A DNA stretch of 28,453 nt from Rivularia sp. (in: cyanobacteria) (GTDB taxonomy: Bacteria > Cyanobacteriota > Cyanobacteriia > Cyanobacteriales > Nostocaceae). The stretch covers positions 1 through 28,453 of the forward strand of contig JBHJJJ010000149.1 in the NCBI GenBank assembly GCA_050042755.1. The letters are read 5' to 3'. Shown piece by piece: positions 248-16,611 of the stretch. Position 1 is the stretch's first letter; each line of letters begins with the position of its first letter. The notes below the pieces were generated by a model. That model ran no database searches and had not been told where the DNA came from. It saw only the letters and a program-made list of their open reading frames with translations. The translations under genes and the position numbers were made by a program.

Positions 248-1294
248 ATGCAACAAGAAATTCTCAGCTTACAAAAGATAACTAAATTATTTGCAGAAAG
301 TGAAATTCCTGCGGTGAATAATGTCTCCTTGACATTACAAGAAGGAGATATACTAGCTTTATTAGGTCCTTCCGGTTGCGGTAAAACTACTTTGTTGCGA
401 ATAGTTGGCGGTTTTGAATATCCACAAACCGGAGAAGTTATAATTGGTAAACAGAAAGTTTGCTCTCCTGTTACTTGGATGCCACCGGAAAAACGCGATG
501 TTGGCATTGTGTTTCAAGATTATGCACTTTACCCCCATCTAACGGTAGCTCAAAACGTTGCTTTCGGCTTAAAAAATCCGGACAAACATCAGGTACAAAA
601 AAGAGTTTCCGAAGTTTTAAACTTGGTAAGACTTGAAAATTTAGAAAACCGTTATCCTTACGAACTTTCTGGAGGGCAACAGCAACGAGTCGCCTTAGCT
701 CGTGCTTTAGCACCCAAACCAAAATTGATGCTCTTAGACGAACCATTGTCTAATCTTGATATCCAAGTTAGATTACAATTGCGAGAAGAAATCCGAGATA
801 TTCTGAAACTAGCTGGTACTTCCGCAATTTTTATCACTCACGATCAAGAAGAAGCCCTAGCAATTGCAGATGTAGTAGGGGTGATGCGTTTGGGGCATTT
901 AGAACAAATTGGCACGCCAGAAGAAATTTACACTCATCCTGCATCGCGGTTTGTAGCAGAGTTTGTTACCCAAGCCAACTTCTTACCTGCTCGTCGTCAA
1001 GGTAATGTTTGGCAAACAGAAATTGGTGATTTTGAAATTAAGGGGAATCATGCCCAAGATACAGGGGAAATAATGATTCGTCAAGAAGACTTAATTTTAG
1101 AAGTTGATCAAGATGCTGATGCTCAGTGCAAGATTACCAAACGCCACTTTTTAGGGAGAGAGTATCGTTATTGTTTGGAAACTCCTTCTGGTATAGAAAT
1201 TCATGCTAGAACAATGGCAGATATAATACTACCTGAAGGAACATCTGTAAAAGTATCGATCGCGGATGATGCTGTGAGAGTTTTTCCGGAGTGA
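248..1294 (+). CDS. ABC transporter ATP-binding protein, FbpC/PotA/CysA-type importer ATPase with C-terminal regulatory (TOBE-like) extension
   Basis: Walker A GPSGCGKTT, ABC signature LSGGQQQRVALARAL, Walker B LMLLDEP, H-loop FITHDQ. The 348-aa length is typical of Fe(III)/polyamine/sulfate importer ATPases. Confidence 0.9.
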   Translation: MQQEILSLQKITKLFAESEIPAVNNVSLTLQEGDILALLGPSGCGKTTLLRIVGGFEYPQTGEVIIGKQKVCSPVTWMPPEKRDVGIVFQDYALYPHLTVAQNVAFGLKNPDKHQVQKRVSEVLNLVRLENLENRYPYELSGGQQQRVALARALAPKPKLMLLDEPLSNLDIQVRLQLREEIRDILKLAGTSAIFITHDQEEALAIADVVGVMRLGHLEQIGTPEEIYTHPASRFVAEFVTQANFLPARRQGNVWQTEIGDFEIKGNHAQDTGEIMIRQEDLILEVDQDADAQCKITKRHFLGREYRYCLETPSGIEIHARTMADIILPEGTSVKVSIADDAVRVFPE

Positions 1295-1503
1295 TTAAGT
1301 ATAAATAATTATAGCTGATTTGATTGGAATTAATTGGACGGGCATCCTTGCCCGTAGCACAAGAGTTATTATACGAGTCCACATAAAGCTTTATTCTTTA
1401 ACAATTGATACATTTCTTTGTATAAGCATGAACATTCTTCCCAAAGAGGCAGAACTTCCTCTGGAAACAGAACTTCTGCAATTTTAGTTTATTTGTAATT
1501 TTA

Positions 1504-2289
1504 TTAACTAGAAGCATCCTCGACAATTAAACGATATTGATACATCTCTTCATAAAATGGTTGGCACTCTTCTACCAAAGCCTTAAATTCCGAGGGTAAA
1601 TTTACCTGTTTTTCTTCATAAGGAATAAATCCGCTAGAATTCATAACTGTGGAATACCAAGTTGGGGCAAAAGAGGACAAGGCAGCTGTAAATAATAGTT
1701 GAGAGTTTTTTAGTCCTGGTTGCCAAGAGAGCATTTTTTCAGAAAACTCTAGCCCTAAATGAGAACATAAGATATTGAGAACTTTTTTGGGATTTTTTAC
1801 AAAGTCCGTTGAATCGATAACCAAAGGCTTAGTGCCAGTCAATGCCTCAATTTCTTTGAACATCTTATAATTTTCCACCATGCCTAAATCATGCTTTGTG
1901 ACTTTTCCATAAACCTTGTGCCAAGATACAGCAATTTCTTTGGGATTTCTAATTAAAAAAAAGTTATGAAGACTTTTTAGCCAGTTTTGACCAAATTCTG
2001 GTAGTGCGTGTTTGGATATATGCTTTTGGAAGGAAAAAGATCCACCATTAGGTAAATCCCCAGTAATTTTTTGAATTACCTTTTGGTAATTACTTTCGCA
2101 ATAATCCATCATCTCTTGTCGGTGGGGGTGGTCAAAACCGTGTGTTAACAGATAAGCTCCATATAAAGGCTCATCAAAAACAATGCAGCCATCTAACTGC
2201 TCAAAAGCTCTGGTTATTAATGTAGAACGACTTCTGGGACATGTCCACAGAGCAATATGTTTATTTTTTGTCAAAGTATCTGTTGTCAT
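1504..2289 (-). CDS. PAPS-dependent sulfotransferase family protein
   Basis: 261-aa ORF. 5'-PSB-like loop WTCPRSRSTLI near the N-terminus and 3'-PB-like block FFLIRNPKEIAVSW, matching bacterial PRSGST / RNPxDxxxS sulfotransferase motifs. Confidence 0.7.
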   Translation of the reverse strand: MTTDTLTKNKHIALWTCPRSRSTLITRAFEQLDGCIVFDEPLYGAYLLTHGFDHPHRQEMMDYCESNYQKVIQKITGDLPNGGSFSFQKHISKHALPEFGQNWLKSLHNFFLIRNPKEIAVSWHKVYGKVTKHDLGMVENYKMFKEIEALTGTKPLVIDSTDFVKNPKKVLNILCSHLGLEFSEKMLSWQPGLKNSQLLFTAALSSFAPTWYSTVMNSSGFIPYEEKQVNLPSEFKALVEECQPFYEEMYQYRLIVEDASS

Positions 2290-2499
2290 ATAGAGATTTT
2301 TAAATGACTTGTTACTACTTGAAGAATTACAATCCTTCTCAAGGATGCCATGGCGCTGTTCGCTAGAAATCTAGGTAGAGTACTGGTGCAAAAAGAAAAT
2401 ATCAATCTAAAATGCGGTTCTCGCAAAATATGACCACTCAGTACTTTATTTTACATTCATTCCTTAATCTTAAGGAGAGATTATCTGCTTTAGCTTGGA

Positions 2500-3324
2500 T
2501 TACACCAATAAAACCTCTTCTGAAACAGGCTCAATCCCTCGATAATCTCGGCTCGCTAAAAATTCCGGACGTGGGTTTTCCACAGCAACCGGAAGATTTT
2601 CAACACTATTATAGTTAATCACGACAATGGCGCGATCGTAGGGAGACATATTAGAAGCCGAACCGTGAACACAATTCGGATGGAAAAATAGCACTGAACC
2701 TGCAGGTCCCTTGGGGGCTACAATAGAGCCATACTGGTTCACCAACCTTGCTAAGGTATCTTTATCGATCATGTACTTGAGGCTAGTAGTCATAGCTACT
2801 ATCCAGTCGGGACTATCCTGATAAGCAGAATCTTGTTGCGCTTCGGTCGTAATACTAATTACGCCCTCTTTGTGGGAACCCGGAATTAACATCAGCGGTC
2901 CGTTAAATTCATTCACCTCATCCAAGAAAATCACCGCATTTGCTATCCGGGGTGTGGGTAAACCATCTTCCTGCCATAAATAAACGTAATCCTGATGCCA
3001 TTGCCAAACTTCACCATCAAATGCTTTTTTAGCATTAATTTTAAATTGATGAACATAAATTGAACTGTTCAGAATCTGCATTATTGGTGCAACAAGCTTT
3101 GAATGTTCGGACAAAAGTCTAAAAACTTCTTTTTCTTTATGAACGCCGTGAACCATCCGCACAGTTGTGCCATCTTGCTCTAGTACTTTTCCTGGCAGTT
3201 CCTTGCCATATATATCTGGCACCTCAGATTTCATTCTCTTTACTTCCTCTGGGGAAAAACAATTGGGAAAGAAGAGATAACCAAGGTCATGGTAACTTTT
3301 CAATTGTTCTGTTGTTAGTTCCAT
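2500..3324 (-). CDS. Fe(II)/2-oxoglutarate dioxygenase, PhyH superfamily, ectoine hydroxylase (EctD)-like
   Basis: Collinear with EctD as I recall it: LTTEQLKSYHDLGYLFF, IYVHQFKINAK, WQWHQDYVYLWQEDGLP (HxD iron ligands, codons 2995-2997 and 2989-2991), GPLMLIPGSH, GPAGSVLFFHPNCVHGSASN, YNSVEN. Start placed at the ATG of MELTTEQL (3324); the ORF track extends to 3354. Confidence 0.8.
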   Translation of the reverse strand: MELTTEQLKSYHDLGYLFFPNCFSPEEVKRMKSEVPDIYGKELPGKVLEQDGTTVRMVHGVHKEKEVFRLLSEHSKLVAPIMQILNSSIYVHQFKINAKKAFDGEVWQWHQDYVYLWQEDGLPTPRIANAVIFLDEVNEFNGPLMLIPGSHKEGVISITTEAQQDSAYQDSPDWIVAMTTSLKYMIDKDTLARLVNQYGSIVAPKGPAGSVLFFHPNCVHGSASNMSPYDRAIVVINYNSVENLPVAVENPRPEFLASRDYRGIEPVSEEVLLV

Positions 3325-3363
3325 AAAAAATATAAATCTCAATTTTTTTAACAATCTCAGGAC

Positions 3364-3475
3364 TTACGTAAGTGTCACAAAAGTCGGGTGGTGCCGTACA
3401 CTCCGCAGCCTCATTCCCTCGGTTCTTCATCAGTTAAAGTGACACGTGCCCCTACAAGAAAAATATGCCAGTTGC
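3364..3475 (+). mobile_element. MITE-like small dispersed repeat, copy A (about 112 bp)
   Basis: Aligns over its full length with the reverse complement of 24875-24982, e.g. ttacgtaagtgtcac.../...cccctacaagaaaaatatgccagttgc. Internal inverted heptamers gtgtcac/gtgacac. No coding capacity. Confidence 0.75.
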
Positions 3476-3518
3476 TCCCGTCCTAAATCTACCGCAAATG
3501 AGGGTATATGGTGATTAT

Positions 3519-4601
3519 TTAACTAAAAGATGCGATTTGTTCTCTATCTGCTTCTCGTGGTAAAGTACTACAAATGAAATCATATGGATTTTGTGAGTCT
3601 GTGGGACAGTACTCTAGTTCAATGCGCTCGCCGAGTCCCTCTGACTCTACTAATTTTAGCATAATCTCCAATGCTAAATGGTCTTCTAATGCCATACCCG
3701 TTGAGTCAAATACAGTTCGGCGCTGCTGCCAGGACTTAAATTCTGGCACTCTTCGCACCACTTCGAGTAAGTCAGGTCCGATTTCCGACTTTTCTAACTG
3801 CTGGCATTCCCCTTCAACCACTGCTTGTTCGGGAAAGTCTGGACAGACCAAGCTTGTCTTAAGTACAGATAAGGGCAATTCGATTTTTCCGGGAAGATCG
3901 GCACCAACAGCATTAATATGAACGTGGGGTTTGAGAGCTTCGCCACGGATAACCGGACCTGCACCAGGCTCAACCGTTGTAGCCGTGCAAAGAATATCGG
4001 CTTCCCGTTCCACTTCCTCTAAAGAACATATCCGGATCGGCAGTCCCAAGAAATCTGTTCGCAACGGTAACGAGCGAGATGCATCTGGATCGATATCGTA
4101 AACCAATACCTGCTCAAGGGCAAACACTCTACTCAAAGCGTGTAATTGAGTTACAGCCTGCGCCCCGGCTCCCACCAACCCCAAAGTACTACTCTCTGGA
4201 TGAGCCAGAATATTACTGGCAACTGCAGACGCAGCCCCAGTCCGTATAGCAGTCAAAATATTACCATCGGATATCGCCAATAAGAGACCGGTGGTGTAAT
4301 CGTAAAGGCTAATGTTAGCAACAATAGTTGGCAACCCAATTGCTTCACTATTCTTTGGTTGATAAGCGACTACTTTAATTGCAACAGACTGGTCTGTCTG
4401 TCTTTTATAGGGCATCCATTCAAGGACAGAAGGTGGCTGTATAGTTTGGAAACCTGCACGGGGTGGGTGTTCATTTAGCCCTCCAGCAGCAACCTTGAAA
4501 GCTTCTGTCAAACCAGCTATCATCTTATCCATGAGAGCATCATGCCCTATTCGCTTGATGACTGTAGAAATATCTTGAGGTCGGATTAAAAGTGTTTCCA
4601 C
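3519..4601 (-). CDS. Ornithine cyclodeaminase / mu-crystallin family NAD-dependent enzyme (ornithine or lysine cyclodeaminase-like)
   Basis: 360-aa ORF with a GTG start. Rossmann motif LGLVGAGAQAVTQL, with N- and C-terminal blocks collinear with OCD-family proteins (INAVGADLPGKIEL, VFDSTGMALED). Confidence 0.85.
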   Translation of the reverse strand: METLLIRPQDISTVIKRIGHDALMDKMIAGLTEAFKVAAGGLNEHPPRAGFQTIQPPSVLEWMPYKRQTDQSVAIKVVAYQPKNSEAIGLPTIVANISLYDYTTGLLLAISDGNILTAIRTGAASAVASNILAHPESSTLGLVGAGAQAVTQLHALSRVFALEQVLVYDIDPDASRSLPLRTDFLGLPIRICSLEEVEREADILCTATTVEPGAGPVIRGEALKPHVHINAVGADLPGKIELPLSVLKTSLVCPDFPEQAVVEGECQQLEKSEIGPDLLEVVRRVPEFKSWQQRRTVFDSTGMALEDHLALEIMLKLVESEGLGERIELEYCPTDSQNPYDFICSTLPREADREQIASFS

Positions 4602-5091
4602 GATCTTAAATAGACTAGTAAACTCTCACCAAATTTTATACAAGACTTTTAAGGAAAAGTAAAGCAAGAATTGTGTTCTTCAACCCCCTATTTGCTGAGA
4701 TGCTTGTACTTTTTTATATTATACAATTTATGATTATACGTAGAACAACCAATTTCAAAAATAATAATTAAGAATCAACTATCAATCAATAAACTAAGAC
4801 TATGCATCTGGATAAAATATACACTGCTCATTCAGCATAAGTAAGTTCGTAAGTAAAACGCAGCTCATTACCTTGAGGTTATACCGAATGTATTTGGTTT
4901 AAGGAAGGGCAATCCGAACTTCAGATTGAGAAATACTTGATGTTGATTGAATCACAAGATTGATATCTCAGAGGACAGTACCGCACGTCTTCTTTTACAA
5001 ATTTACTGCGTATTGCACCGGAGTAGGAGCATTGCGGAGACTACCCTCAACAGAAAGACACTATATTCCGTCTGTAGGATTTCTTCTGACA

Positions 5092-6078
5092 TCAACCTCC
5101 AATTTGTGACATGGTGCGATGATAAACACCATTTGTTCCCCTATCTCGCTCTTTAAAATTAATCTCTTCTTTGAGAAACAATAATTTTCTAACTTGTTCT
5201 TTTAATTGATAAGAATCAACCCCATTACGTAAAGCATCTTTTAAATTAATTTGACCAGTTTCATTTAGCAAACAAGGGCGTAACCAACCATCGGCAGATA
5301 AACGGATGCGATTACATTTGTCACAAAAACATTCTGACATTTGCGAAATAAATCCTAAAGTACCTAGAGCACCAGGAATTTTAAACACATCTGCGGGACC
5401 ATTTCCTTTTATATTAGACTCAATTAAACCAAATTTATGCAAAATAAGATCGCGTAGTTCTGCGGAAGGAATCCAAGCAGTTTCATCAAATAAATTATTA
5501 TTACCAATAGGCATAAATTCAATAAAACGAACGTGCCAATTACGCTCAATTGTTAAAGCTGCTAAATCGAGAATTTCCGCATCATTTACACCCCGAATAA
5601 CTACTACATTTAGCTTTAAAGGATTGAAACCAACTTCATAAGCTGTTTGAATACCTTGCCAAGTCTGCTGCCAGCGTGATTTTCCCCCATTACCAATCAT
5701 CTTGTCAAAAATATCTGGATTAAGGGAATCAAGACTTATATTTATACGTCGCAAACCTGCATCAAAAAGTGGTTTTGCCTACTACCCTAATAAAATACCA
5801 TTAGATGTTATGGCTATATCGACACAGTGAGGAAGAGAAGCAACTTCTCCAACAAAATCAACTATCCCTGGACGTAATAATGGTTCGCCTCCGGTAAGAC
5901 GAAATTTAGTAAATCCTAATGGAATAAAAACTTCTTTAAGTAAAGTTAATAACTCTTGATAACTCAGTAATTCTTGTTGTAAAAGATAATCAAGCTTCGC
6001 ACCTTCTGGTACACAATAATGACAGCGAAAGTTGCAGCGGTCAATTAAGCTAATACGTAGATAATCTACTTTATTCAT
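5092..6078 (-). pseudogene. moaA: GTP 3',8-cyclase MoaA (radical SAM, molybdenum cofactor biosynthesis) interrupted by two tandem in-frame TAG codons
   Basis: ORFs 5782..6078 (CNFRCHYC radical-SAM cluster motif, GGEPLL) and 5092..5754 ([11 protein letters not shown]-terminal [13 protein letters not shown] cluster motif) share one frame. The minus-strand junction reads [24 protein letters not shown], with the stops at 5782-5784 and 5779-5781. Confidence 0.85.
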
Positions 6079-6390
6079 ATATTTTTATCTATAATTAATT
6101 ATCAAATTGCTTCAAGATTATAGGTAAAAGCTTTTGATGTCAAATAGATGATTGAATAAACTGATTTATTGTTGATTAATATGCAAGTAATCCATCGGTT
6201 GCTTGTCTTTTTTTTTACGCTTATATCGAAGTACACAACGGTAATCAACCCGAAGTTAATCTACACCGCCCCCTACAAGAAAAAATCTGGCTTCTAATTA
6301 CTAACCCGGAAAGCTGCTTAATAGATATAAAAAAGTTACAATTTTTACAAAATACAATATACTACGATGTACTATTTCATGAGAATTAAT

Positions 6391-6429
6391 TGCAACTGCT
6401 TTCTGTGAAAAACAGTTGCAGTATTTTTT
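6391..6429 (+). terminator. Orphan rho-independent terminator-like hairpin plus T-tract in ORF-free region
   Basis: tgcaactg(c)tttc-tgt-gaaa(aa)cagttgca followed by gtatttttt. There is no + strand ORF upstream. Confidence 0.45.
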
Positions 6430-7088
6430 GTCTCGGAATATAAATAACCATTAATTAAAAAATATTAAAAGTAGGAAAAGTAGGAAAAGTAATAGATTTC
6501 GATGAAAAAATTTAAAGCTGATGTTTTGGAGTCAATTTCTGCATAAAAATTAACACTTTTAGTTACAATAGCTGTAGCTTAGATAAAGCGTTTGTAGTCC
6601 CAAGTTTGTAGCTTGCTAAAACTCCTATAACTTAAAATGCCAACATTCAAAGATACAAAAAGAAGGTTGATTAATAGTTACTTGTTTGCTATAAATGAAA
6701 TCACAACATCAAAATTGTCTTCTATGCTACAATTTACTAGGAAAAGTTGAAGATTCAAGTGTGTGGTTTAAACCCAAGGTTGGATAGTTGAATCTGAACA
6801 GCGATTATATGGCAAGAACATGGGTTTTGTCACCTATCTGATTAAATAACAGCAAATCAGACTGTACAGTAGAGCTCGGGGGCACTATCAAAGCAAAATT
6901 GGGAAAACAGAATTGCCCAGAACGTTGATTAGCCTAGGCGTTGGGATTATGGTTTAAGGGTTAGCTGGTTAAAGATTGAGAGTAGAGATTACTTTCGTGA
7001 GATATTAAAGCTTGGTTGATAGATTGAGAATTCCCATCCTTGAGGGAGAGGGGGTAAAGTTAGTTGTAGTCTATTCGAGATTATTAAA

Positions 7089-9662
7089 ATGAAAGATCTA
7101 TCAGTTTTATTGACTGTAATCACTGAATATCTTGGAGAAACGACTAAAAATCAAGAAGTGCTCAGGGAGAAAGATAACAAGCACTATAATGAAGCAAAGT
7201 TTACTGTTGATAAGACGGGAGAAACTAGAGGCTTTTCGATTCAAAGCAATGCGCCCTTTGAGAAAAAACTTGATGGCAATCAACTTCAAAGTTATCAAAA
7301 GTATTTAGTAAATCCACGGCAAATTAAAGAGTCAAAAGAAGGATCAAAAAAATATCCTACCCTAGAGAGTAATCATATTTGGTTTGATGCGCTTTATGCC
7401 CTAGCCATGGAAGAAGTTCGTCAATGTTCGGTGTCTGAGATTAAAGATGGTGCCTATAATAATGGAAATTCTATCTCGGCACCTGATGGGGGATATTTTG
7501 AGACAGGTTTATTCTGGACTTATGTTTGGACAAGGGATACTTCCTATTCTGTGGATCTGAGTTTAGCTGTTATTGACCCAATTAGGTCATTAAATTCTTT
7601 AAATTTTAAGCTCTCTGAACGCCGTGAAGGAGGCAATCTTCAAATCATACAAGACACAGGCACGGGGGGTAGTTATCCCATTTCAAGCGATCGCGTTAGT
7701 TTCAGTTTTGGTTGTCGTGCTTTGTTGCGACAACTCCAAGGTAAGACGAGGGATGATTTTGCAAGTCATTCCTATGAAGCTCTCAAAAATACTATTGAAC
7801 ACGATCGTCAAGTAATCTTTGATCCCCGACATGGGCTTTACCGAGGAGAACAGTCATTCTTAGATTGGCGGGAGCAAAGTAATCCTAAATGGACTGCTGA
7901 AGATCCGGTGCAAATTGGCATGTGTAAAGCACTTTCTACTAATTGTTGTCATTTTAACGCGCTACAGTTAGCTGCTTCTTTGGCAAGGGAATTAGGTGAG
8001 CCAGAGTCAGAAAATAAGTATAAAAAATGGGCCCAGGAGTTACGTGAAGCGATCCGCACTCATCTGTATTTACCAGAAGAAAAACTCTACTCTACCTTTA
8101 TTACTACAACTTTTGCTCCAGGGGCAGCCCATCAATACGATCTATTGGGCAATGCCTTGGTTATTTTGGTTGGTATTGCTGACGAGGAACAAGCCAGTGA
8201 AATAGTTTCTAACTACCCTCATTTACCGAAAGGAGCTTCTGTAATTTGGCCTCAACAAAGGGATACCCCCATTTACCATAATCAAGCAATTTGGCCCTTT
8301 GTTACGGCTTATTGGCTCAGAGCGGCGAAAAAAGTCAAAAACGATCGAGTAGTCACCCTTGGATTAAGTTCCTTAGTTAGAGGTGCTGCCTTAAGTTTAT
8401 CGAATATGGAAAATTTCGATGCAGATACTGGGCTTGTTGAAATAGACTCGCAAGAAAAACAACCTGTAGTAAATTCTCCACGTCAGTTATGGTCGGTGGC
8501 AGGTTATTTATCGGCGATTCATGAGCTTATTTTTGGAATCAGTTGGACGGATTCAGGAATTCTCATCGATCCTTATATTACCCGTGAATTTCGTAATTGT
8601 CTTTTACCCAAGTCAAATCAATTGGTCTTAAATGGCTTGCTTTATAAGGAGCATCAACTGGATATTACAATTAATTTGCCTCCTACTACTAAAGAAATGG
8701 CAGGAGCTTATGCAGTTGGAGAAATTCGTCTTAATGGACAACAGATAAAGATCGGCTCAGAGATTATTGAATCAATGCTTGACGATCGCAATACCCTTGA
8801 GGTTAAATTAGTTGAGGGTAGTACAGAAACTTCTTCGATTAATCTTGTTACCAATCTGAAAGATTATCGATACAGATTTGCGCCTAGACCACCTATAGTT
8901 GATTCTATAATTGCAATAGATCATCAATTAGAAATAAAGTTTCATCTTGATGGTGAAAATCCTTCGGAAGTTACAATTAATGTTTATCGAGATGGAGATT
9001 TAGTTGCCCAAGGATTATCTGGACATAGTACTAGTTGGCGCGATCCAAACAGTCAGGGGACTCAATCACCTAGCTACTGTTACAACTTAGAAGCAGTTTA
9101 CATCAGTGGCGGTACGACTTCCCAACGTTCTAAACCTTTCTGTTATTGGGGAGATAATAGCGATCGCATTTATTTTGTAGATGCCGATCAATTTTCCGTA
9201 ACCGGGGGCGATCGTCCTATTTCTTCTAGACATGGTAAAAACCATTATGAAAATTGGGGTAAACCTGATGATAGTATCACAGTTAAGATAAAACCTAAGT
9301 TTGATGGTCCTCATGCTATTCAGGTAGTGGCAGCAAATGGTGCAGGCCCCATCGATACGGGAATTACTTGTGCTGTAAAACACTTGCAAATGAAAGATTC
9401 ACAAGATCAAATAGTTGCAGATGGTTATTTAGTAATGCCTCATCTTGGTAAGTGGGATCGCTGGTTAGAGTCTTCGGTTATTTATACCGAAGTGGACTTA
9501 ATCAAAAATCGAGAATACGAAATCAGTATTTTTGGTGACGAAGGAGCCATAAATATGTCAACTTTTAAACACAATGAAGAATATACAGGTGGCAAAGGAG
9601 GAACCGGAGGAGCTTACAATTATGTAAATATTGCTCAAGTAAAGTTGAATGCTTTAAGCTAA
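7089..9662 (+). CDS. Putative (alpha/alpha)6-barrel glycoside hydrolase (GH15 / glycogen-debranching-like catalytic domain) with about 270-aa C-terminal beta-sandwich/CBM-like region
   Basis: 857-aa ORF. The WxRD block FWTYVWTRDTSYS, YRGEQSFLDWRE, IWPFVTAYWL and PRQLWSVAGYL resemble (alpha/alpha)6 glycosidase signatures. No signal peptide. Family assignment is tentative. Confidence 0.55.
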   Translation: MKDLSVLLTVITEYLGETTKNQEVLREKDNKHYNEAKFTVDKTGETRGFSIQSNAPFEKKLDGNQLQSYQKYLVNPRQIKESKEGSKKYPTLESNHIWFDALYALAMEEVRQCSVSEIKDGAYNNGNSISAPDGGYFETGLFWTYVWTRDTSYSVDLSLAVIDPIRSLNSLNFKLSERREGGNLQIIQDTGTGGSYPISSDRVSFSFGCRALLRQLQGKTRDDFASHSYEALKNTIEHDRQVIFDPRHGLYRGEQSFLDWREQSNPKWTAEDPVQIGMCKALSTNCCHFNALQLAASLARELGEPESENKYKKWAQELREAIRTHLYLPEEKLYSTFITTTFAPGAAHQYDLLGNALVILVGIADEEQASEIVSNYPHLPKGASVIWPQQRDTPIYHNQAIWPFVTAYWLRAAKKVKNDRVVTLGLSSLVRGAALSLSNMENFDADTGLVEIDSQEKQPVVNSPRQLWSVAGYLSAIHELIFGISWTDSGILIDPYITREFRNCLLPKSNQLVLNGLLYKEHQLDITINLPPTTKEMAGAYAVGEIRLNGQQIKIGSEIIESMLDDRNTLEVKLVEGSTETSSINLVTNLKDYRYRFAPRPPIVDSIIAIDHQLEIKFHLDGENPSEVTINVYRDGDLVAQGLSGHSTSWRDPNSQGTQSPSYCYNLEAVYISGGTTSQRSKPFCYWGDNSDRIYFVDADQFSVTGGDRPISSRHGKNHYENWGKPDDSITVKIKPKFDGPHAIQVVAANGAGPIDTGITCAVKHLQMKDSQDQIVADGYLVMPHLGKWDRWLESSVIYTEVDLIKNREYEISIFGDEGAINMSTFKHNEEYTGGKGGTGGAYNYVNIAQVKLNALS

Positions 9663-9767
9663 AGTTTTTTGTCTGTTGGCTTTACACTGTTAGGGCTTCT
9701 GAGAAACTAAAAATCAAGCTATATAAGGCGTTATAAGTTATAAACAATATCTTTGAAGGAGTAAAAT

Positions 9768-11645
9768 ATGGGTGAAATTAAGGTAAAACCGAGAGTGATT
9801 GATTGCGAGACTGCCTCTAATAAAGAATACGATGTTGTGATCGTGGGAGCAGGAGTAGCCGGAGCAATAGTCGCCAAACAATTAAGCGAACAGGGAAAGA
9901 CTGTTTTAATAGTTGAGGCAGGATCTGGAAAGGATTTAACCCTTGAAGGCTATCAAAGTTACGTCGATCATTTTCATTCTGCTTTAGGAAAGGATAACAA
10001 TGCCCCTTATCCTAGAAATCCCAATGCTCCAAGTCCTAGGAGTCCTGATGTCAGCAAATTGATTCCAGGGCAGATTGATGCAAGTGCATATTTAGTACAG
10101 CGAGGACCTTTAGCCCTTGACAGTACCAATACCAGGGCTACTGGCGGGACAACTATGCATTGGGAGGGGAAAACCCCACGCATGTTACCAGGGGATTTCA
10201 AATTACGCAGTACATATGGACAAGGACTAGATTGGCCCTTTGACTATGACCATCTGATGCCCTACTTCAGGATTGCCGAGAGGGAGCTAGGGGTTTCAGG
10301 TAATGTAGAAGATCAAATAAAGCTAGGGGGGGTATATAAAGAAGACTATGTCTTCCCGATGAAAGAGATGCCTCCCTCTTACTTAGATAAGACAATTAAG
10401 GAAAAAATTGATAATAGCACAGTAGAATTGGATGGTGAAACTTATACATTAGATGTGCTGACTTTTCCCCAGGCTAGAAATGGTATACCCAATCCCGATT
10501 ACTACAAAGGTGTTGACGATTACCGCGAGGGCGATCGCTTCGATCCTGATGGACTGACTAGCGTACATCCTGTTGAATATGGTGAACGTTGCCAAGGTAA
10601 CGCCAACTGCGTGCCTATTTGTCCCGTTCAAGCGAAGTATGATGCCCGCAAAACTTTAGGTAAAGCATTTAATACCGAACGAGTGGATATACTTCCTCAG
10701 GCTGTGGCATCCAAGATTGAAATTAACCCTGAAAACAATCGAGTTACTGCCGTTCACTTTAAGTGCTATCAGGATAAGAACTCTCCGAAGCATGAAACCG
10801 GAATAGCGAAAGGTAAACTGTTTGTACTAGCAGCCAATGCAGTAGAGAATGCTCGATTGCTTCTGTCTTCAAATCTTCCAACAACCAAAAGCAGCGAATT
10901 GATTGGCAGACATCTGATGGATCACCCTTATGTACTCTGCTGGGGATTGATGCCTGAAGTGACTGGCACTATGCGAGGGCCTTTGTGTACATCAGGAATC
11001 GTAGCATTTCGTAAAGGTGATTTTCGTCACAAGCAAGGTGCATTTGCGATCGATATCCATAATGATGGTTGGGGCTGGGCAACTGGTTCTCCCGACACTG
11101 ATGTTCTTGATATTATTGATAACAAAAACAAGTACGGTAAGGGACTGCGCGAAGAACTGGTAAGTAAAATCTCGCGACAGTTATTGCTTGCTTGTATGTG
11201 TGAGTTACCTGCCGATCCCAGTAACCGAGTGACAATAGATCCCAATTATACAGATCCTTTAGGTAATTATCGCCCTGTGATATCCTTTAACATATCTGAC
11301 TACTGTAAGAGGACACTTGCTTATGCAAGATATATCTGTAGTCTGGTCTTCCAGCGCTTGGGAGCAGAGGAATATACACACTACGATCCATCTGACTACG
11401 GATATTTTACTTATGAAGGTGAGGGCTATGTCTTCCGGGGTGGTAACCACTATGCAGGCACTCATGTAATGGGTACTAGCCCAGATAATTCTGTTGTTGA
11501 CAAGCATCAGCGTTCTTGGGATCATAAAAATCTTTATTTAGTAGGCGCTGGTAGCATGCCAACCATTGGTAGTTCTAACACAACTGTCACACTTTCAGCT
11601 ATGACTTTTTACAGTACAGAGCAAATGCTCAAAGACTTAAATTAA
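9768..11645 (+). CDS. GMC-family FAD-dependent sugar/polyol dehydrogenase catalytic subunit with Cys-rich 3Fe-4S-type motif
   Basis: Strong RBS aaggag. FAD fold DVVIVGAGVAGAIVAKQL...VEAG. C-terminal GMC block HYAGTHVMGT...NLYLVGAGSMPT. Motif C-QGNAN-C-VPI-C-PVQAKY at 10590-10640. Confidence 0.85.
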   Translation: MGEIKVKPRVIDCETASNKEYDVVIVGAGVAGAIVAKQLSEQGKTVLIVEAGSGKDLTLEGYQSYVDHFHSALGKDNNAPYPRNPNAPSPRSPDVSKLIPGQIDASAYLVQRGPLALDSTNTRATGGTTMHWEGKTPRMLPGDFKLRSTYGQGLDWPFDYDHLMPYFRIAERELGVSGNVEDQIKLGGVYKEDYVFPMKEMPPSYLDKTIKEKIDNSTVELDGETYTLDVLTFPQARNGIPNPDYYKGVDDYREGDRFDPDGLTSVHPVEYGERCQGNANCVPICPVQAKYDARKTLGKAFNTERVDILPQAVASKIEINPENNRVTAVHFKCYQDKNSPKHETGIAKGKLFVLAANAVENARLLLSSNLPTTKSSELIGRHLMDHPYVLCWGLMPEVTGTMRGPLCTSGIVAFRKGDFRHKQGAFAIDIHNDGWGWATGSPDTDVLDIIDNKNKYGKGLREELVSKISRQLLLACMCELPADPSNRVTIDPNYTDPLGNYRPVISFNISDYCKRTLAYARYICSLVFQRLGAEEYTHYDPSDYGYFTYEGEGYVFRGGNHYAGTHVMGTSPDNSVVDKHQRSWDHKNLYLVGAGSMPTIGSSNTTVTLSAMTFYSTEQMLKDLN

Positions 11646-11741
11646 TCGATATCTATTAGGTTTAAGAGTCTTGTATCTTAAGCAAAAAAGTGGGAAAAAG
11701 TTCAACCTTATATTACAGAATCGGAAATTGCCAGGGGAGAT

Positions 11742-12947
11742 ATGGTAAGCACAAACAAGGATAATTATGCCATTTCAAGTATTGAGAACTTGCGCGAGTA
11801 TCTGTATTGGGCAATGAGTATTGAACATTCAACGATTCCGCCTTACATCATGGCACTCTACTCGATTAAGCCCGGTACAAATCTACAAGCATTCCAAATA
11901 CTTCGCTCTGTTGCCGTAGAAGAAATGCTGCACCTAACTCTAGCAGCCAATGTCTTTAATGCTGTTGGAGGAAAGATCGAAAATACTTTGAGTGGTTCTG
12001 ACTTTATCCCAGAATATCCAACCACCATAGCAACGGGAGAAGACGACTTTGAAGTTTCCCTAGAGAAATTTTCTAGGCAAAGTGTAGAAACTTTCCTCAA
12101 CATTGAACGTTCAAAACATGTGCCTGAAGATAAACCATTAGTGGGAAAAAGAGATCCCAAAAAAAGGTGGTTGACACGTGTTCCTAAGACTGGAAAGGAG
12201 GAAGGTTTTAGTTTCTATAGCATTGGGCTGTTCTATGCAGAGATTATCCGTGGTTTGAATGCCTTGTATAGAGAGCATCGTGACGATCTGTTTTGTGGCG
12301 ATCCTCAGCGGCAAATTACACCTGATTATTACTTTGATGGTGGAGGGGAAATTATCCCAGTTAAGAATCTACGCTCTGCAATACGTGCTTTGAAGATGAT
12401 TCAAGATCAAGGAGAGGGTTCGAGACAAGGAAGTATCTATGATGCAGAAAGAGAGCTTTCCCATTATTGTCGTTTTGAACAATTGTTGATCTTGGATACA
12501 AAGTATAGATCGGACTTGAAGAAAAACTTGCAAGATGAATTGGGTGATGGCTGGAAAGATGTATTGGGTGAAGACTGGAAAGAAGATGTGGGTGGAGACG
12601 GCTGGGGGCAATATTACCGGATAGATAGAGATAATCCAGAGAAATCCGATAAGCCATTTCATCCTACTGGTGAAAAATTTAAAGTTGATTGGGACGCTGT
12701 TTATCCCGTTAAGGACAATGCTAAGCTAAGTGATTACCCAGAAGGATCTGAGTTGCATACTGCAGCGAAGGAATTCCAGTCCAGCTACAAAGATTTCCTT
12801 GGTAAGATTGAGTACTCCTTTGATGGGCATCCCGATCGTTTAATTCCCGCAATCGGTGGCATGTTCAAGCTTAAGTATGGGGCTGAGCGGATAATGAAAA
12901 ATCCGATTCCAGGAGAGGAAGGAGTTAATGGCGCACCAATCTTCTGA
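11742..12947 (+). CDS. Ferritin-like (putative diiron) domain protein
   Basis: 401-aa ORF. N-terminal SIEHSTIPPYIMALYSI block typical of ferritin-like domain proteins. Two ExxH motifs: EMLH (codons 11922-11933) and ELSH (12453-12464). RBS ggggag. Confidence 0.65.
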   Translation: MVSTNKDNYAISSIENLREYLYWAMSIEHSTIPPYIMALYSIKPGTNLQAFQILRSVAVEEMLHLTLAANVFNAVGGKIENTLSGSDFIPEYPTTIATGEDDFEVSLEKFSRQSVETFLNIERSKHVPEDKPLVGKRDPKKRWLTRVPKTGKEEGFSFYSIGLFYAEIIRGLNALYREHRDDLFCGDPQRQITPDYYFDGGGEIIPVKNLRSAIRALKMIQDQGEGSRQGSIYDAERELSHYCRFEQLLILDTKYRSDLKKNLQDELGDGWKDVLGEDWKEDVGGDGWGQYYRIDRDNPEKSDKPFHPTGEKFKVDWDAVYPVKDNAKLSDYPEGSELHTAAKEFQSSYKDFLGKIEYSFDGHPDRLIPAIGGMFKLKYGAERIMKNPIPGEEGVNGAPIF

Positions 12948-12952
12948 TTAGA

Positions 12953-13097
12953 CTAGGGCGTATTTTCAAACCCTAACCGCTCTCAGGCTAAAGCCTGGAG
13001 CTATACAAAAGGTGCCCTTAAAGGGCTAAAAACCCTAATTTTTCTAGCCCGCTGCCACGGCGAATTTAGTGACGGCGAATTTGAAAACACGCCCTAG
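12953..13097. mobile_element. MITE-like element (145 bp) with 18-bp terminal inverted repeats
   Basis: Left TIR ctagggcgtattttcaaa (12953-12970) against right TIR tttgaaaacacgccctag (13080-13097), 17/18 complementary. Internal direct repeat acggcgaattt x2. Non-coding. Begins 6 bp after the stop at 12945-12947. Confidence 0.75.
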
Positions 13098-13134
13098 CCT
13101 TTAGACATAAACGCCGTTCAAAAATTTGACTGTG

Positions 13135-13162
13135 CAATCTCCGTATTCAAAAACGGAGATTG
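13135..13162. other. Perfect 10-bp stem / 8-nt loop hairpin in the leader of the small-subunit gene
   Basis: caatctccgt-attcaaaa-acggagattg. No T-tract on either side, so its function is unclear. Confidence 0.6.
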
Positions 13163-13218
13163 TTAAAGGCTGTCAAAACTGTGAGAGGAACTGAAATTTT
13201 TGTAGAGGAGAACAACCA

Positions 13219-13830
13219 ATGGGCACTAATAAAACTAAGACTGAGTTGATAGAGTATTTTCTAGATTTCTCAGCAGTGATAACTGGCTTTTATAAGTTTT
13301 ACTTACGAGGAACAGGTCAAGTTGACTCATACTACGACACCGTTAATAATATTATTGGCACGGAAATGTTTGAGGGATTGTTAATAACATTCCATAATCT
13401 TGATCTGAAAGCGAAAGCTGAGGGTGATAACTCAGTTTTGAATGAAGGGATTCTCCGTGATATCCTGGGTTCTGAAAAATTCGGTGCGATCTCTCGCAAC
13501 ATCATCAAACTCTGGTATCTAGGTACCTGGTATGAACTGCCTACATCATGGCGGGAAAAATTTGGTAATAAGGAGAAAGATATAAACTTTGTTGTAAGTC
13601 CACAAGCTTATAATGAAGGACTTTTGTGGCCTACCCTTAGCGTTAATCCTCGTGCTGCAAAAGCACCGGGATATGGCACCTGGGCTGAGGCTCCTTATGA
13701 ACCCCCTAAAATATACGATATTAAGGATACTAACTCACTCGAAGATGTGAAAAGCGTAGATTCTGACATTTTGAAGTCGAAACCAGTTGACATTGGCACC
13801 AAAGTATTAAACAAAACAAAATCTAACTGA
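13219..13830 (+). CDS. Small (gamma-like, 'hitch-hiker') subunit of FAD-dependent sugar dehydrogenase complexes (sorbitol-DH small-subunit family), lacking a Tat signal
   Basis: FLDFSAVITG, IIKLWYLGTW and VVSPQAYNEGLLWPTL...APGYGTWAEAP are collinear with the Burkholderia FAD-GDH gamma subunit as I recall it. RBS gaggag. No RR signal at the N-terminus. Confidence 0.6.
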   Translation: MGTNKTKTELIEYFLDFSAVITGFYKFYLRGTGQVDSYYDTVNNIIGTEMFEGLLITFHNLDLKAKAEGDNSVLNEGILRDILGSEKFGAISRNIIKLWYLGTWYELPTSWREKFGNKEKDINFVVSPQAYNEGLLWPTLSVNPRAAKAPGYGTWAEAPYEPPKIYDIKDTNSLEDVKSVDSDILKSKPVDIGTKVLNKTKSN

Positions 13831-13853
13831 AAAATCAAACGTAAAAAACAAGT

Positions 13854-14543
13854 ATGAACATTCAACCTTGGTTTCGTAAACTTTCTACTATTGCCCTGAT
13901 AATTATCGTTAGTTTAACGATATTTACTGCACCATCTTATGCTTTTGTCCCTAGCGATAAAGTACAGATCAATGTAAATCACTTGAAGAAGACAAATGAA
14001 TGTAATCAATGCGATCTATCAGGGGCAAATTTGTCTGGAGCCGATTTATATGGCAGTGCGCTGCTTGAAGCCAATCTATCGGGAGCAGATCTATCTGATG
14101 CCTTACTGAATGATGCCAAGCTAAAAGGAGCGAATTTATCGGGAGCGAATTTATCTAATGCCCTGCTCATGGGCATAACCTTGTCGGAAGCCAATCTAAC
14201 AAACGCTAATTTATCCAGTGCAGATTTGTACAATGCTCTTATGGAGAGTACAACATTGTCAGGAGCAGATTTAACAGGTGCCGATCTAACCTCGGCTATT
14301 TTATCTGAAACGGATTTGTCTAATGTTGATGGTGAAAATGTCAATTTAGATCAAGCAATTTTAAATAAAGCTAATCTATCGGGAGCAAATTTTACCCACG
14401 CTAAAATGAGAAATGCTAGGTTAGCCGAAGCCATACTTGAAGGAACCAAGCTGTTTGAGGCCGATCTATATCGTGCTGTTATGCCTGACACTACTATCTA
14501 TAAGGGAAAGGGAGATGTGTCAAAATTCGGTGCTTATCAGTAG
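13854..14543 (+). CDS. Pentapeptide-repeat protein with N-terminal signal peptide
   Basis: Hydrophobic N-terminus ending PSYA|F, followed by about 30 consecutive A(N/D)LSx pentapeptides (ANLSGADLYGSALLEANLSGADLSDA...). Confidence 0.9.
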   Translation: MNIQPWFRKLSTIALIIIVSLTIFTAPSYAFVPSDKVQINVNHLKKTNECNQCDLSGANLSGADLYGSALLEANLSGADLSDALLNDAKLKGANLSGANLSNALLMGITLSEANLTNANLSSADLYNALMESTTLSGADLTGADLTSAILSETDLSNVDGENVNLDQAILNKANLSGANFTHAKMRNARLAEAILEGTKLFEADLYRAVMPDTTIYKGKGDVSKFGAYQ

Positions 14544-14572
14544 CAGTCGATTATTCAATTAAAGATTTTTAG

Positions 14573-14701
14573 GCGTTGCTGAATGTGGCGGATGAAGTGA
14601 TAATTTCTTATTGTTCTCAGACGTTGCAATGCGGAAGTCTCTACAAAGTTTTCGTTACAAAATGTAGATAAATATAATGCTTCTGCTAAATTCAGCAACG
14701 C
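14573..14701. repeat. 129-bp unit bounded by a perfect 12-bp inverted repeat (MITE-like, or a structured leader)
   Basis: gcgttgctgaat (14573-14584) and attcagcaacgc (14690-14701), followed by tgatttttt. Lies 52 bp upstream of the ATG at 14754. Confidence 0.5.
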
Positions 14702-14753
14702 TGATTTTTTGTTCTCCTCAAACAACTTTTTAGTCTCATAACAGGATGCACCG

Positions 14754-15854
14754 ATGTTAAAACAAATTAGACGATTGTTGATTTCTGTTGTTATTTTGAT
14801 GTTATTCGGGATTTCAACTCCACTGCCAGCCAAAGCTGTGACAATCGATCCTCTGACGGGTGAGGATAAGTTGCCTTTGAAGATTTGCCGAGTCGGAGAA
14901 GCCCCTAAACCCCCCATTTTTGAACGCAAAAAAGTTCATTTGGGCATTACTCCCACAGGTTGGAGCAATAGTGACGATCGTAGTATCGATTTGGTTCCTC
15001 CTATCCCTTACCAGCAGATTCTAAGTGAAATGGAACTGGCTGGCTTCAAAGGCTCGCAAGTATCTCCAAAATATCCTGCAGACATCGATATTTTGCATGA
15101 CGAGTTAGAATTGCGTAAGTTAAAGATTTCTGAACCTTGGGTAGGAACTAAGTTCACTACCAATAGGAGCGAAGTTAGCAAGGAAATCTTCCATCAACAG
15201 ATGGACTATATGAAGAGCCTGGGTGATAGGGCTAGCAAGATCATTGTGGTGGCTGAACTAGGTGGTGCTGTCCATCAACAACCTGTTGAACCCTTAAACA
15301 ACAGACCTATTTATAGCGATGAACAATGGGATAAATTGACTGCAGGATTAAATGAGATAGGAAAAGAAGCACATGAAGCAGGGATGCGCTTAGTTTACCA
15401 TCCCCATGTGGGAACAGGAGTGGAAACGAGAAAGGATATCGATCGGTTAATGAACAACACCGATCCTAAATATGTCAAATTACTCCTTGATACTGGTCAT
15501 CTTTACTACGCAGGAGTCGATCCTCTTAAAGTTACCGAAGATTACGCCTATCGCATCGGGCACGTTCACTTAAAAAACATTCGTAAGGACAAGTTAGATG
15601 ACTCTCAAAACAAAAAGCTAAGCTTTATAGAGTCTATCAAAAATGGCGTATTTACCGTTCCTGGTGATTGCAGTGGGGTGATTGAGTTTGAGCCAATTTT
15701 CAAAGCACTTGCCAATTTCAAAGATAAAAAAGGAGAAGATAAAACATATAAAGGATGGTTAGTAGTTGAAGCCGAACAAGATCCAAACAAAGCCGAACCT
15801 TTGCTATACGCCCAAACAGCTCGTAAGTATCTACATCAAGTTACTGGTTTGTAA
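14754..15854 (+). CDS. Inosose dehydratase (IolE)-like xylose-isomerase-fold TIM-barrel enzyme with N-terminal signal peptide
   Basis: From HLGITPTGWSNSDD onward it is collinear with B. subtilis IolE as I recall it (VYHPHVGTGVET, DRLMNNTDPK, LLLDTGH, GVFTVPGDC, YKGWLVVEAEQDPNKAEPL). A 58-aa N-terminal extension begins MLKQIRRLLISVVILMLFGISTPLPAKA|V. Confidence 0.85.
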   Translation: MLKQIRRLLISVVILMLFGISTPLPAKAVTIDPLTGEDKLPLKICRVGEAPKPPIFERKKVHLGITPTGWSNSDDRSIDLVPPIPYQQILSEMELAGFKGSQVSPKYPADIDILHDELELRKLKISEPWVGTKFTTNRSEVSKEIFHQQMDYMKSLGDRASKIIVVAELGGAVHQQPVEPLNNRPIYSDEQWDKLTAGLNEIGKEAHEAGMRLVYHPHVGTGVETRKDIDRLMNNTDPKYVKLLLDTGHLYYAGVDPLKVTEDYAYRIGHVHLKNIRKDKLDDSQNKKLSFIESIKNGVFTVPGDCSGVIEFEPIFKALANFKDKKGEDKTYKGWLVVEAEQDPNKAEPLLYAQTARKYLHQVTGL

Positions 15855-15907
15855 TCCAAGACTGGTTGATTAATATAGCGTTTTTCATTTGAGTTAAATA
15901 CTTCTGT

Positions 15908-15962
15908 TGTGGTACAGGCATTTTTGCCTGTTGCCAAGCAATTTCAGGACTCCTGTACCACA
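15908..15962 (+). terminator. Inverted-repeat structure after the IolE-like gene: 11-bp outer stem with a competing inner hairpin
   Basis: tgtggtacagg (15908-15918) pairs with cctgtaccaca (15952-15962). The inner hairpin acaggc-attttt-gcctgt (15914-15931) overlaps the left arm. Confidence 0.45.
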
Positions 15963-16114
15963 ATATCCCAGTGTATTGCACTCAAACGAAAAGTAATATA
16001 ATTTTTCACACAAGGGTAGTGTACAAAAACCGAACTCTATCTCAAGTTTGTGTTTATTGCTCCGAATCGAGTTACTTTAAATCCTTAAAAAACCTTCAAA
16101 AGGAGAGAAATATA

Positions 16115-16507
16115 ATGTCCGATCGTGATGGTGAAGAAATTAAAAGAGTGTTTGAGCGAGTGTATGTTGATAATGTAAGACATAAAAAGGTTGAAGATTA
16201 CGGTAAAATGTACACAGAAGAGGCGCGCTGGATGCCTCCTGATGCAAAAGATCGCTGCGGTAAGGACGATATTATTGAAGGGTTTGCACAATCTGTCGCT
16301 CACCAAGATATTGAACCTTTTTTCAAGGCTGATGAAATTAATATCAACAATGATTTTGCTTATGTAATAGGTACCTCAGTGGCAAATATTTATCCTAATG
16401 ATGGAAGCCCACCCAAAGAAGTCAAATTTCGAGCTTTGTGGTTGATGAAAAAAGTGAACGGAGAGTGGAAAATTGACCGTCAAATTTGGAATAAGAAACC
16501 ACTGTAA
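16115..16507 (+). CDS. NTF2-like (SnoaL/DUF4440-type) small protein
   Basis: 130 aa counted from the ATG preceded by the RBS aaaaggagag. Size and pattern (EARWMPPD...EWKIDRQIWN) are typical of the NTF2-like fold. The ORF-track start at 15971 (GTG) has no RBS. Confidence 0.5.
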   Translation: MSDRDGEEIKRVFERVYVDNVRHKKVEDYGKMYTEEARWMPPDAKDRCGKDDIIEGFAQSVAHQDIEPFFKADEININNDFAYVIGTSVANIYPNDGSPPKEVKFRALWLMKKVNGEWKIDRQIWNKKPL

Positions 16508-16583
16508 TCTTGTATTTTGTGCATCGACTACTAGTAAGTAGTGCGCTTGATTTGATTTGACTGGCTCGTTTTTCCACAACCGT

Positions 16584-16611
16584 GTAGAGACGTAAAAATT
16601 TTCGTCTCTAC
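16584..16611. repeat. Hairpin of the gtagagacg/cgtctctac type (common Nostocales small repeat)
   Basis: gtagagacg-taaaaatttt-cgtctctac, a 9-bp perfect stem, 77 bp after the NTF2-like stop. Confidence 0.55.

Follow-up and report, generated by a model that had tools for sequence, protein, structure and literature searches.

We have analysed a 28,453-nucleotide stretch of a Rivularia sp. genome (contig JBHJJJ010000149.1, positions 1 to 28,453, assembly GCA_050042755.1), to which we refer at its full length as the window, and we have focussed on three consecutive minus-strand genes near its beginning that encode a cyclodeaminase, a hydroxylase of the PhyH family and a sulfotransferase (LCD, HYD and ST, respectively, in our shorthand). 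In their NCBI entries (MGD1911489-91) the three are labelled only “hypothetical”, “phytanoyl-CoA dioxygenase family” and “ornithine cyclodeaminase family”. The genes, with the features that separate and surround them, are:

1405-1476, minus strand: relic, the C-terminal 24 codons (EVLFPEEVLPLWEECSCLYKEMYQ) of a second PF19798 sulfotransferase, recognised by nucleotide and translated similarity
1504-2289, minus strand: ST, CyrJ-like sulfotransferase of family PF19798 (Sulfotransfer_5), 261 aa; 103.8 bits against a cutoff of 23.2
2290-2499, no strand: HYD-ST spacer, 210 bp
2500-3324, minus strand: HYD, Fe(II)/2-oxoglutarate hydroxylase of the PhyH family (PF05721), 274 aa from the ATG; 120 bits
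3325-3518, no strand: LCD-HYD spacer, 194 bp, with a short dispersed repeat at 3450-3488
3519-4601, minus strand: LCD, probable L-lysine cyclodeaminase (OCD/mu-crystallin family, PF02423), 360 aa, GTG start; 217 bits against a cutoff of 24
4602-5091, minus strand: AT-rich region upstream of LCD, 490 bp

The original prediction had described three consecutive minus-strand genes of these families, and the open reading frames are indeed present at those coordinates, all with Pfam scores far over threshold. The spacer lengths hold as well, 210 bp for one and, for the other, 194 bp or 164 bp depending on the start of HYD; the ORF finder placed this start at a TTG codon (3354), and the likely true one is the ATG at 3324 (MELTTEQ...), in agreement with the N-termini of the homologues. 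As for the statement that no ectABC, nonribosomal peptide synthetase (NRPS) or transporter gene is adjacent, neither ect genes nor NRPS were found in the window or in the 30-kb contig of a sister assembly (L001), but a gene for an ABC-transporter ATPase does adjoin ST.

The cyclodeaminase

When LCD was compared with all PDB sequences, 5gzi and 5yu0, both lysine cyclodeaminases, came out on top (E 1e-88 over the full length), ahead by 47 orders of magnitude in E-value of the ornithine cyclodeaminase (OCD) of P. putida (1u7h, 1.6e-41), with alanine dehydrogenase (AlaDH, 3e-38) and pyrroline-2-carboxylate (Pyr2C) reductase (8.5e-37) following. On the difference between 1e-88 and 1.6e-41 the reading as an ornithine cyclodeaminase was disfavoured. 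The homologues at 50-57% identity come from Streptomyces (53% for that of Streptomyces hygroscopicus), Actinoplanes, Micromonospora and myxobacteria, and a few of them are named L-lysine cyclodeaminase by their source. These actinomycete and myxobacterial groups are the classic producers of pipecolate-incorporating compounds. The residues that contact pipecolate and NAD in SpLCD, the enzyme of S. pristinaespiralis, have been listed as R49, E63, K77, V79, R121, A235-D236, K240 and S301-T302 (PMC5935100), and every one of them is conserved in the window protein in the alignment of the PDB hits. Being largely common to OCD, they support catalysis and not lysine specificity, and SpLCD itself turns over ornithine and tolerates several diamino acids (PMC5935100). 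No NCBIfam equivalog cutoff was reached by LCD, the best score being that of the OCD model (192 bits, about half its cutoff); it would therefore be a divergent member, for which we infer lysine specificity. Altogether, the cyclodeaminase is probably of the LCD type, with pipecolate rather than proline as the ring that it forms.

The hydroxylase

The closest PDB sequences to HYD were the trans-3/4-proline hydroxylase H11 (4e-66; its identity is taken from the titles of entries 7dzz, 7e0x and 8h7x) and GriE (1e-61), followed by EctD (8e-40). The AlphaFold2 (AF2) model (pLDDT 89.4) gave in Foldseek template modelling (TM) scores of 0.89 to H11 and 0.77-0.81 to EctD. In the family alignment H110/D112/H220, R231 and R252 are invariant, and they recur in every sequence listed in the comparison of position 116 below; by homology the two arginines would bind 2-oxoglutarate and the substrate carboxylate. 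Judged from these comparisons, HYD belongs with the PhyH-type hydroxylases of free amino and imino acids, that is, the group of H11 and GriE.

The protein had been called EctD-like. This is correct at the level of the superfamily, and the EctD model is in fact its top NCBIfam match, but HYD fails that equivalog model (TIGR02408, 170 bits against a cutoff of 336.5) and groups with H11 and GriE. The signature region quoted for it, WHQDYVYLWQEDGLP, is found in the protein, with the Fe ligands kept. Against the EctD signature, which we take to be WHSDFETWHxEDG(M/L)P, only W, H, D, EDG and LP are retained, and 6 of the 15 positions are changed (S, F, E, T, W and H). For the low score, the broken signature and the missing ectABC genes, an identity as EctD was rejected.

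One position deserves separate mention. Residue 116 is Trp in H11, GriE and EctD and in 73 of 80 homologues without any LCD, ST or EamA transporter gene close by, whereas it is Leu in the window protein and Leu, Tyr or Phe in all six distinct hydroxylases that are adjacent to LCD. The loss of this Trp may enlarge the pocket for a six-membered ring, the sequences compared being phylogenetically non-independent.

The sulfotransferase

ST has no relative in the PDB by sequence. With its AF2 model (pLDDT 90.7) the fold matches in the PDB at ranks 1-34, distant ones, were all sulfotransferases that use 3'-phosphoadenosine 5'-phosphosulfate (PAPS), such as the CurM sulfotransferase, TPST2 and the OLS sulfotransferase (TM 0.34-0.48). 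The PRSRST loop (R19, S22, T23) and the R114...S122 pair are conserved across 31 ST homologues. A tblastn search of plasmids found a protein 33% identical over 95% of the query on plasmid CP070234 of Dolichospermum sp. DET69, which is also a member of PF19798 (74.1 bits); beyond this cyr-type cluster the plasmid search gave only distant Streptomyces matches. The plasmid is conjugative, and the stretch at 117989-132771 (L183) is a cylindrospermopsin-type tailoring region with two amidohydrolases, a 2-oxoglutarate oxygenase, a MATE exporter, the sulfotransferase, annotated only generically, and cysC (adenylyl-sulfate kinase). In the published cylindrospermopsin cluster CyrJ has been proposed to sulfate C12, a role deduced genetically (PMC2885083). 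Because the neighbours of the plasmid gene match the gene content of that cluster, we take it to be cyrJ (the record says just “sulfotransferase”) and refer to ST as CyrJ-like.

An exhaustive search with ST returned 2,293 clusters at 50% identity with E <= 1e-3, and only 70 with E <= 1e-30. Among the distant members (35-40% identity), a conserved pair is seen in 32 loci (within L121-L175; e.g., L147, 8547-9455), in which the gene for a class IV (PF01063) aminotransferase is followed after 8-12 nt by that for the PF19798 sulfotransferase. Some distant representatives, with a length of 555-588 aa, are possibly fusions.

Recurrence of the gene modules

The neighbourhoods of homologues were surveyed in 80 genome loci for HYD and in 80 metagenome loci for ST, with additional look-ups on both sides. 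The complete order LCD-HYD-ST is present in the window and its sister assemblies (L001 and L002), and again in L095, where HYD (68-69% identical) and ST have a 4-nt overlap and LCD has one in-frame stop that may be a read error. It probably also exists on a 4,897-bp Logan contig that carries P0001, P0123 and P0126, the 90%-cluster mates of all three proteins. A trio syntenic in no other genome had been named as an observation that would speak against a cassette; synteny was found in these cases, and HYD-ST or LCD-HYD pairs in more than ten further loci.

Among the pairs with ST, L096 has HYD and ST overlapping by 1 nt, L098 has two hydroxylases (HYD-HYD-ST) and L030 a divergent EamA gene followed by HYD-ST. 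In L180 a glycosyltransferase gene precedes the pair, ca. 30 kb from an LCD-HYD-EamA module of the same genome; both modules lie on one contig, ca. 30 kb apart, in genome J06592_8. In L181 and L182 the order is HYD-ST-O-methyltransferase, next to a carbamoyltransferase. Around this last row (PhyH, PF19798 sulfotransferase and O-methyltransferase; 4118-9786 in L181), the carbamoyltransferase is divergent and there are also SxtJ-/SxtK-like (DUF5989) genes and GDSL lipases, a set that suggests a small carbamoylated, sulfated and methylated metabolite. Without ST, LCD-HYD is followed by a transporter gene of the drug/metabolite transporter (DMT)/EamA type in L084, L086, L087 and L176, and as LCD-HYD-HYD-EamA in L006 (Dapis, Okeania and several metagenome-assembled genomes, MAGs). 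We have counted L177 with them, although its contig ends just upstream of HYD and just HYD-EamA is visible. A member of the HYD clade in L015 is accompanied by a glycosyltransferase and by a sulfotransferase of a different family, PF00685 (Sulfotransfer_1), and other cyanobacterial ST homologues adjoin Rieske oxygenases. An oxygenase beside a sulfotransferase is a recurring pairing.

Most of these modules are found in marine filamentous cyanobacteria (Okeania, Dapis and many MAGs), with ST homologues also in Moorena and Symploca. Taken together, they look like a modular toolkit, with LCD for ring formation, one or two PhyH hydroxylases for the oxidation and ST and/or an EamA transporter for the last step. 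No annotation seems to exist so far for the recurring LCD-HYD-EamA/ST modules. In a different setting, an LCD homologue of Nostoc sp. (67% identical; L178 and L179) is found beside an insertion sequence (IS; DDE_Tnp_1) and a PALP + OCD pair (SbnA/SbnB-like), in an NRPS/polyketide synthase (PKS) cluster with MbtH, and appears to serve an assembly line.

Spacers, transcription signals and a sulfotransferase relic

A consensus scan found no terminator-like site in either spacer, and minus-strand promoter-like sites only upstream of LCD, where there are three sigma-70-like sites; the sole noncoding minus-strand hexamer pairs are those at 4730-4789. This pattern is weakly compatible with a single promoter upstream of LCD, the counts of promoter- and terminator-like sites being no higher than in shuffled sequences. 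Neither spacer folded better than its shuffles (z-scores of +0.8 for LCD-HYD and +0.6 for HYD-ST), and a scan of positions 1200-7200 with Rfam gave nothing credible and no lysine riboswitch. The HYD-ST spacer is unique within the window. In the LCD-HYD spacer a copy of a miniature inverted-repeat transposable element (MITE) had been placed at 3364-3475, but a full element is unsupported; only a repeat of 26-39 nt was detected, in which positions 3450-3488 match 24862-24900 (39 nt, 82%; core of 26 nt, 96%). A 46-nt piece also matches the related locus L015.

Between the intact ST and the ABC-transporter gene lies the remnant of another sulfotransferase gene (1405-1476). At the nucleotide level it shares 78-84% identity with the 3'-terminal parts of ST genes from a sub-lineage other than that of the window ST (L113, L116, L099 and L098), and its translation is 67% identical to residues 231-254 of the 262 residues of P0162. 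The relic is a mark of gene turnover at the site.

Proposed pathway and alternative explanations

What has been directly established for the trio is its set of genes, the families to which they belong, the conservation of catalytic residues and the recurrence of the linkage. From these we believe, at a little better than an even chance, that it is a small biosynthetic cassette for a free sulfated hydroxy-imino acid, leading from lysine through pipecolate and hydroxypipecolate to the O-sulfate. LCD, with a tightly bound NAD+, would cyclodeaminate L-lysine to L-pipecolate, as its strong homology suggests. HYD, with Fe(II) and 2-oxoglutarate, would then oxidise the ring of free pipecolate. Here C5 is the best guess for the position, because a trans-proline-4-hydroxylase (transP4H) accepts L-pipecolate and yields trans-5-hydroxy-L-pipecolate (PMC6958525). 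The CyrJ-like ST would finally move sulfate from PAPS onto the new hydroxyl, and the predicted product is O-sulfo-hydroxypipecolate (C6H11NO6S). The original prediction had proposed the same succession of ring formation, hydroxylation and O-sulfation, which is the order best supported; its proline- or ectoine-type products are, on the other hand, disfavoured, the LCD-type cyclodeaminase pointing to a pipecolate ring.

The same LCD-HYD core is found with EamA, and HYD-ST with a glycosyltransferase, a methyltransferase, EamA or another hydroxylase. Given these partners, the products are most likely free small molecules, accumulated or exported as such (osmolyte, signal or allelochemical) and not used only as peptide building blocks. 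If this pathway is real, it would define an undescribed small sulfated amino-acid metabolite and provide the first assigned substrate for a non-toxin CyrJ-type (PF19798) sulfotransferase, and its products could be overlooked osmolytes or exported signals in sulfate-rich habitats. HYD would in that case represent a new type of pipecolate hydroxylase, within the trans-proline-hydroxylase lineage, for biocatalysis; hydroxypipecolates are sought-after chiral drug intermediates. We found no described pathway or product in the literature that matches a bacterial sulfated hydroxypipecolate, or that brings LCD together with a sulfotransferase. A trans-4-hydroxypipecolic acid sulfate may be known from plants.

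A number of observations weigh against this interpretation. At the level of the chemistry, the searchable literature held no report of a sulfated hydroxypipecolate or hydroxyproline, nor any biochemically characterised member of PF19798, the fold matches of ST are distant (TM <0.5), and neither cysC nor any other gene for PAPS supply is present in the window. At the level of the locus, HYD-ST junctions elsewhere overlap by 1-4 nt or leave a gap of <60 nt, in contrast to the 194 and 210 bp that separate the genes here. The hydroxylases linked to such contexts form a clade with a neighbour-joining (NJ) bootstrap of just 33/100, for which the idea of an exclusive clade was dropped. Five assemblies of a relative, from several samples (L089-L093), have the order MoaA-HYD-ABC without LCD and ST. 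Their HYD is 91% identical to that of the window and evolves under purifying selection (ratio of nonsynonymous to synonymous divergence, dN/dS, of 0.21), so that the hydroxylase can stand alone. The nearest HYD from outside Rivularia (78% identical) is located between NRPS genes in another cyanobacterium. In addition, the window ST is closest to that of L096 (78% at the amino acid level), yet the HYD of L096 is just 61% identical, and with such different nearest relatives the cassette is a mosaic. Several HYD-ST pairs have no LCD within 8-10 kb, and the ST partners in them therefore need not act on pipecolate.

The notion of a cassette thus stands as far as linkage is concerned, which recurs in other genomes, but what recurs is modular and not fixed, as the lone HYD of the relative between the same flanking genes illustrates. 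When the window and L089-L093 are compared, the blocks of homology stop exactly at the borders of HYD. By such comparisons of sequence the locus is a recombination-prone mosaic, and its long spacers would fit a recent assembly. The synonymous divergence (dS) from L089 is lower for HYD (0.21) than for the ABC gene (0.51), a difference from which we draw no claim of transfer. As a check for horizontal transfer, the GC content at third codon positions (GC3) was 0.31-0.38 in the trio and 0.20-0.27 in the immediate flanks, the trio remaining inside the range of the window.

These same facts bear on a simpler explanation, that the three genes are neighbours and not one pathway, with HYD working by itself on some common amino acid (proline or leucine, for example) and LCD and ST serving unrelated processes. 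The intact, selected HYD that the relative keeps by itself at the same site speaks for it, as do the long spacers in the window and the frequent gene turnover that is indicated by the mosaic histories of ST and HYD and the ST relic next door. Nevertheless, we consider it unlikely, if worth keeping in mind, as LCD next to HYD, and HYD next to ST, are each seen again in many unrelated contexts, often with genes that overlap or nearly abut, and the loss of Trp116 tracks the adjacency to LCD. Hydroxypipecolate might also be a building block for a nonribosomal peptide or polyketide that is encoded elsewhere, with ST modifying that end product or some other metabolite. The LCD clade is after all best known from actinomycete and myxobacterial producers, the Nostoc homologue belongs to an NRPS/PKS cluster, and the 78%-identical HYD sits among NRPS genes. 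We give this a low probability: NRPS/PKS genes are absent from the 28-kb window and from L001, and in six loci LCD-HYD is joined to an EamA transporter gene, without an NRPS in the vicinity. Lower still, if by little, we would place a reversed order, in which HYD acts first on free L-lysine and the cyclodeaminase then closes hydroxylysine to hydroxypipecolate. GriE, a close relative of HYD, hydroxylates an acyclic amino acid, and SpLCD is tolerant to several diamino acids (PMC5935100); however, the nearest solved relative has a cyclic imino acid as its substrate and pipecolate is accepted by proline hydroxylases, while HYD-ST pairs occur without LCD and LCD stands first in the gene order.

The role of the sulfate could be a different one as well. 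Instead of a final decoration, it might be a leaving group on the C5 (or C3) hydroxyl of hydroxypipecolate that opens the way to a reactive imino acid, a scenario that we hold to be very unlikely. Just as doubtful are its possible outcomes, elimination to a dehydropipecolate (baikiain-type) or attack by the ring nitrogen to give an aziridine-fused 1-azabicyclo[3.1.0]hexane-2-carboxylate. CurM and OLS, the top fold matches of ST, do activate a hydroxyl for elimination, and the hydroxyl that transP4H puts on C5 of pipecolate is beta to the ring nitrogen. Yet no adjacent gene encodes a partner for elimination or for closing the ring, the closest named relative (CyrJ) has been proposed to form a stable sulfate ester, and the similarity to the CurM sulfotransferase fold is weak (TM 0.45). 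Were it true, the product could leave through EamA transporters, as encoded in the sister loci, and act as a toxin or allelochemical of benthic cyanobacteria. The least probable of the alternatives is that HYD hydroxylates ectoine or proline and that the cyclodeaminase is an OCD making proline. It is the reading of the best NCBIfam models (EctD with 170 bits, OCD with 192 bits), and ornithine is also turned over by SpLCD, but both scores reach only ca. half their curated cutoffs, 6 of the 15 positions of the EctD signature are altered, ectABC genes are absent, and the LCD structures lead OCD by those 47 orders of magnitude in E-value.

Flanking genes and other features of the window

The ABC-transporter ATPase gene (248-1294, plus strand) directly adjoins ST in convergent orientation. 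In relatives, including those that lack LCD and ST, the genes after it encode a permease, an iron-type binding protein and a ferric reductase, and it is probably unrelated to the trio. A link to iron uptake through these Fut-like ABC neighbours was considered and rejected, as the same neighbours flank the locus with HYD only. On the other side, the molybdenum-cofactor gene moaA (5092-6078, minus strand) is interrupted by two in-frame TAG codons in succession (codons 99-100). In a comparison with the sister assembly L001 by raw codon counts, all 8 nucleotide differences fall in codons 84-100, where the amino acid changes at 7 of the affected codons, and there is no difference elsewhere in the gene; this has the look of a local artefact of assembly or polishing, or of a mutation patch. 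A gene for an IsiA/CP43-like chlorophyll-binding protein (PF00421; 26795-27850, minus strand) also has a single in-frame stop (…AMLVG*LFDP…), and the two cases suggest scattered nonsense errors in this MAG. A further open reading frame of the photosystem II (PSII) family (27947-28453, minus strand) runs past the end of the window.

Much of the remaining window is occupied by a run of plus-strand genes (7089-24661). They encode two large glycoside hydrolase (GH)-like proteins (rhamnosidase/MGH1-like), a GMC oxidoreductase, a ferritin-like protein, two xylose-isomerase-like TIM barrels, a galactose-oxidase-like Kelch protein and a DyP peroxidase. This content suggests a sugar-oxidation/processing island, which appears to be unrelated to the trio.

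Comparison with known systems

All three enzyme families are already known, and hydroxylation followed by sulfation has a precedent in the tailoring of cylindrospermopsin. The lysine cyclodeaminases of Streptomyces (SpLCD, 5yu0; 5gzi; RapL-type) resemble LCD over their full length (ca. 50-53% identity), with the NAD-binding GxGxxA motif and all the ligand-contacting residues, and differ from it at His175 of SpLCD (a contact to the NAD phosphate), which is not conserved in the window protein. Their biological context is also different: they feed pipecolate to NRPS/PKS lines, whereas the partners of the Rivularia enzyme are a hydroxylase and a sulfotransferase (an exporter in relatives), with no assembly line nearby.

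H11 (7dzz, 7e0x, 8h7x) and GriE (5nch) share with HYD the PhyH-type fold (TM 0.85-0.89, with 36-42% identity in the structural alignment), the triad of two His and one Asp, and Gln93, Arg231 and Arg252. Both use free amino acids, H11 for trans-3/4-hydroxylation of proline and GriE for 5-hydroxylation of leucine. The segment that follows the HxD motif sets them apart, being YTFWHH in H11, FIVWRD in GriE and YVYLWQ in HYD, with the conserved Trp changed to Leu, and unlike theirs the likely substrate of HYD would be the six-membered pipecolate from the adjacent LCD. EctD is further removed; it shares the superfamily, a collinear sequence and the iron ligands, and its identity to HYD is just 27-32%.

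The CyrJ/CyrI/CyrN set of cylindrospermopsin is similar to the trio in that a 2-oxoglutarate hydroxylation and an O-sulfation are, for the trio by prediction, carried out on a small nitrogen heterocycle in a cyanobacterium, and in that its sulfotransferase belongs to the same family, PF19798. Unlike HYD, however, CyrI fits other families of 2-oxoglutarate oxygenases (WelO5 best) and not PhyH. That system also has PKS/NRPS, an amidinotransferase and a dedicated adenylyl-sulfate (APS) kinase (CyrN), which the Rivularia trio is without. The LCD-HYD-EamA cassettes of marine filamentous cyanobacteria (Dapis, Okeania and other MAGs) have orthologous LCD (63-64%) and HYD (57-61%), arranged and oriented as in the window; where they finish with a DMT/EamA transporter, the Rivularia cassette finishes with a sulfotransferase.

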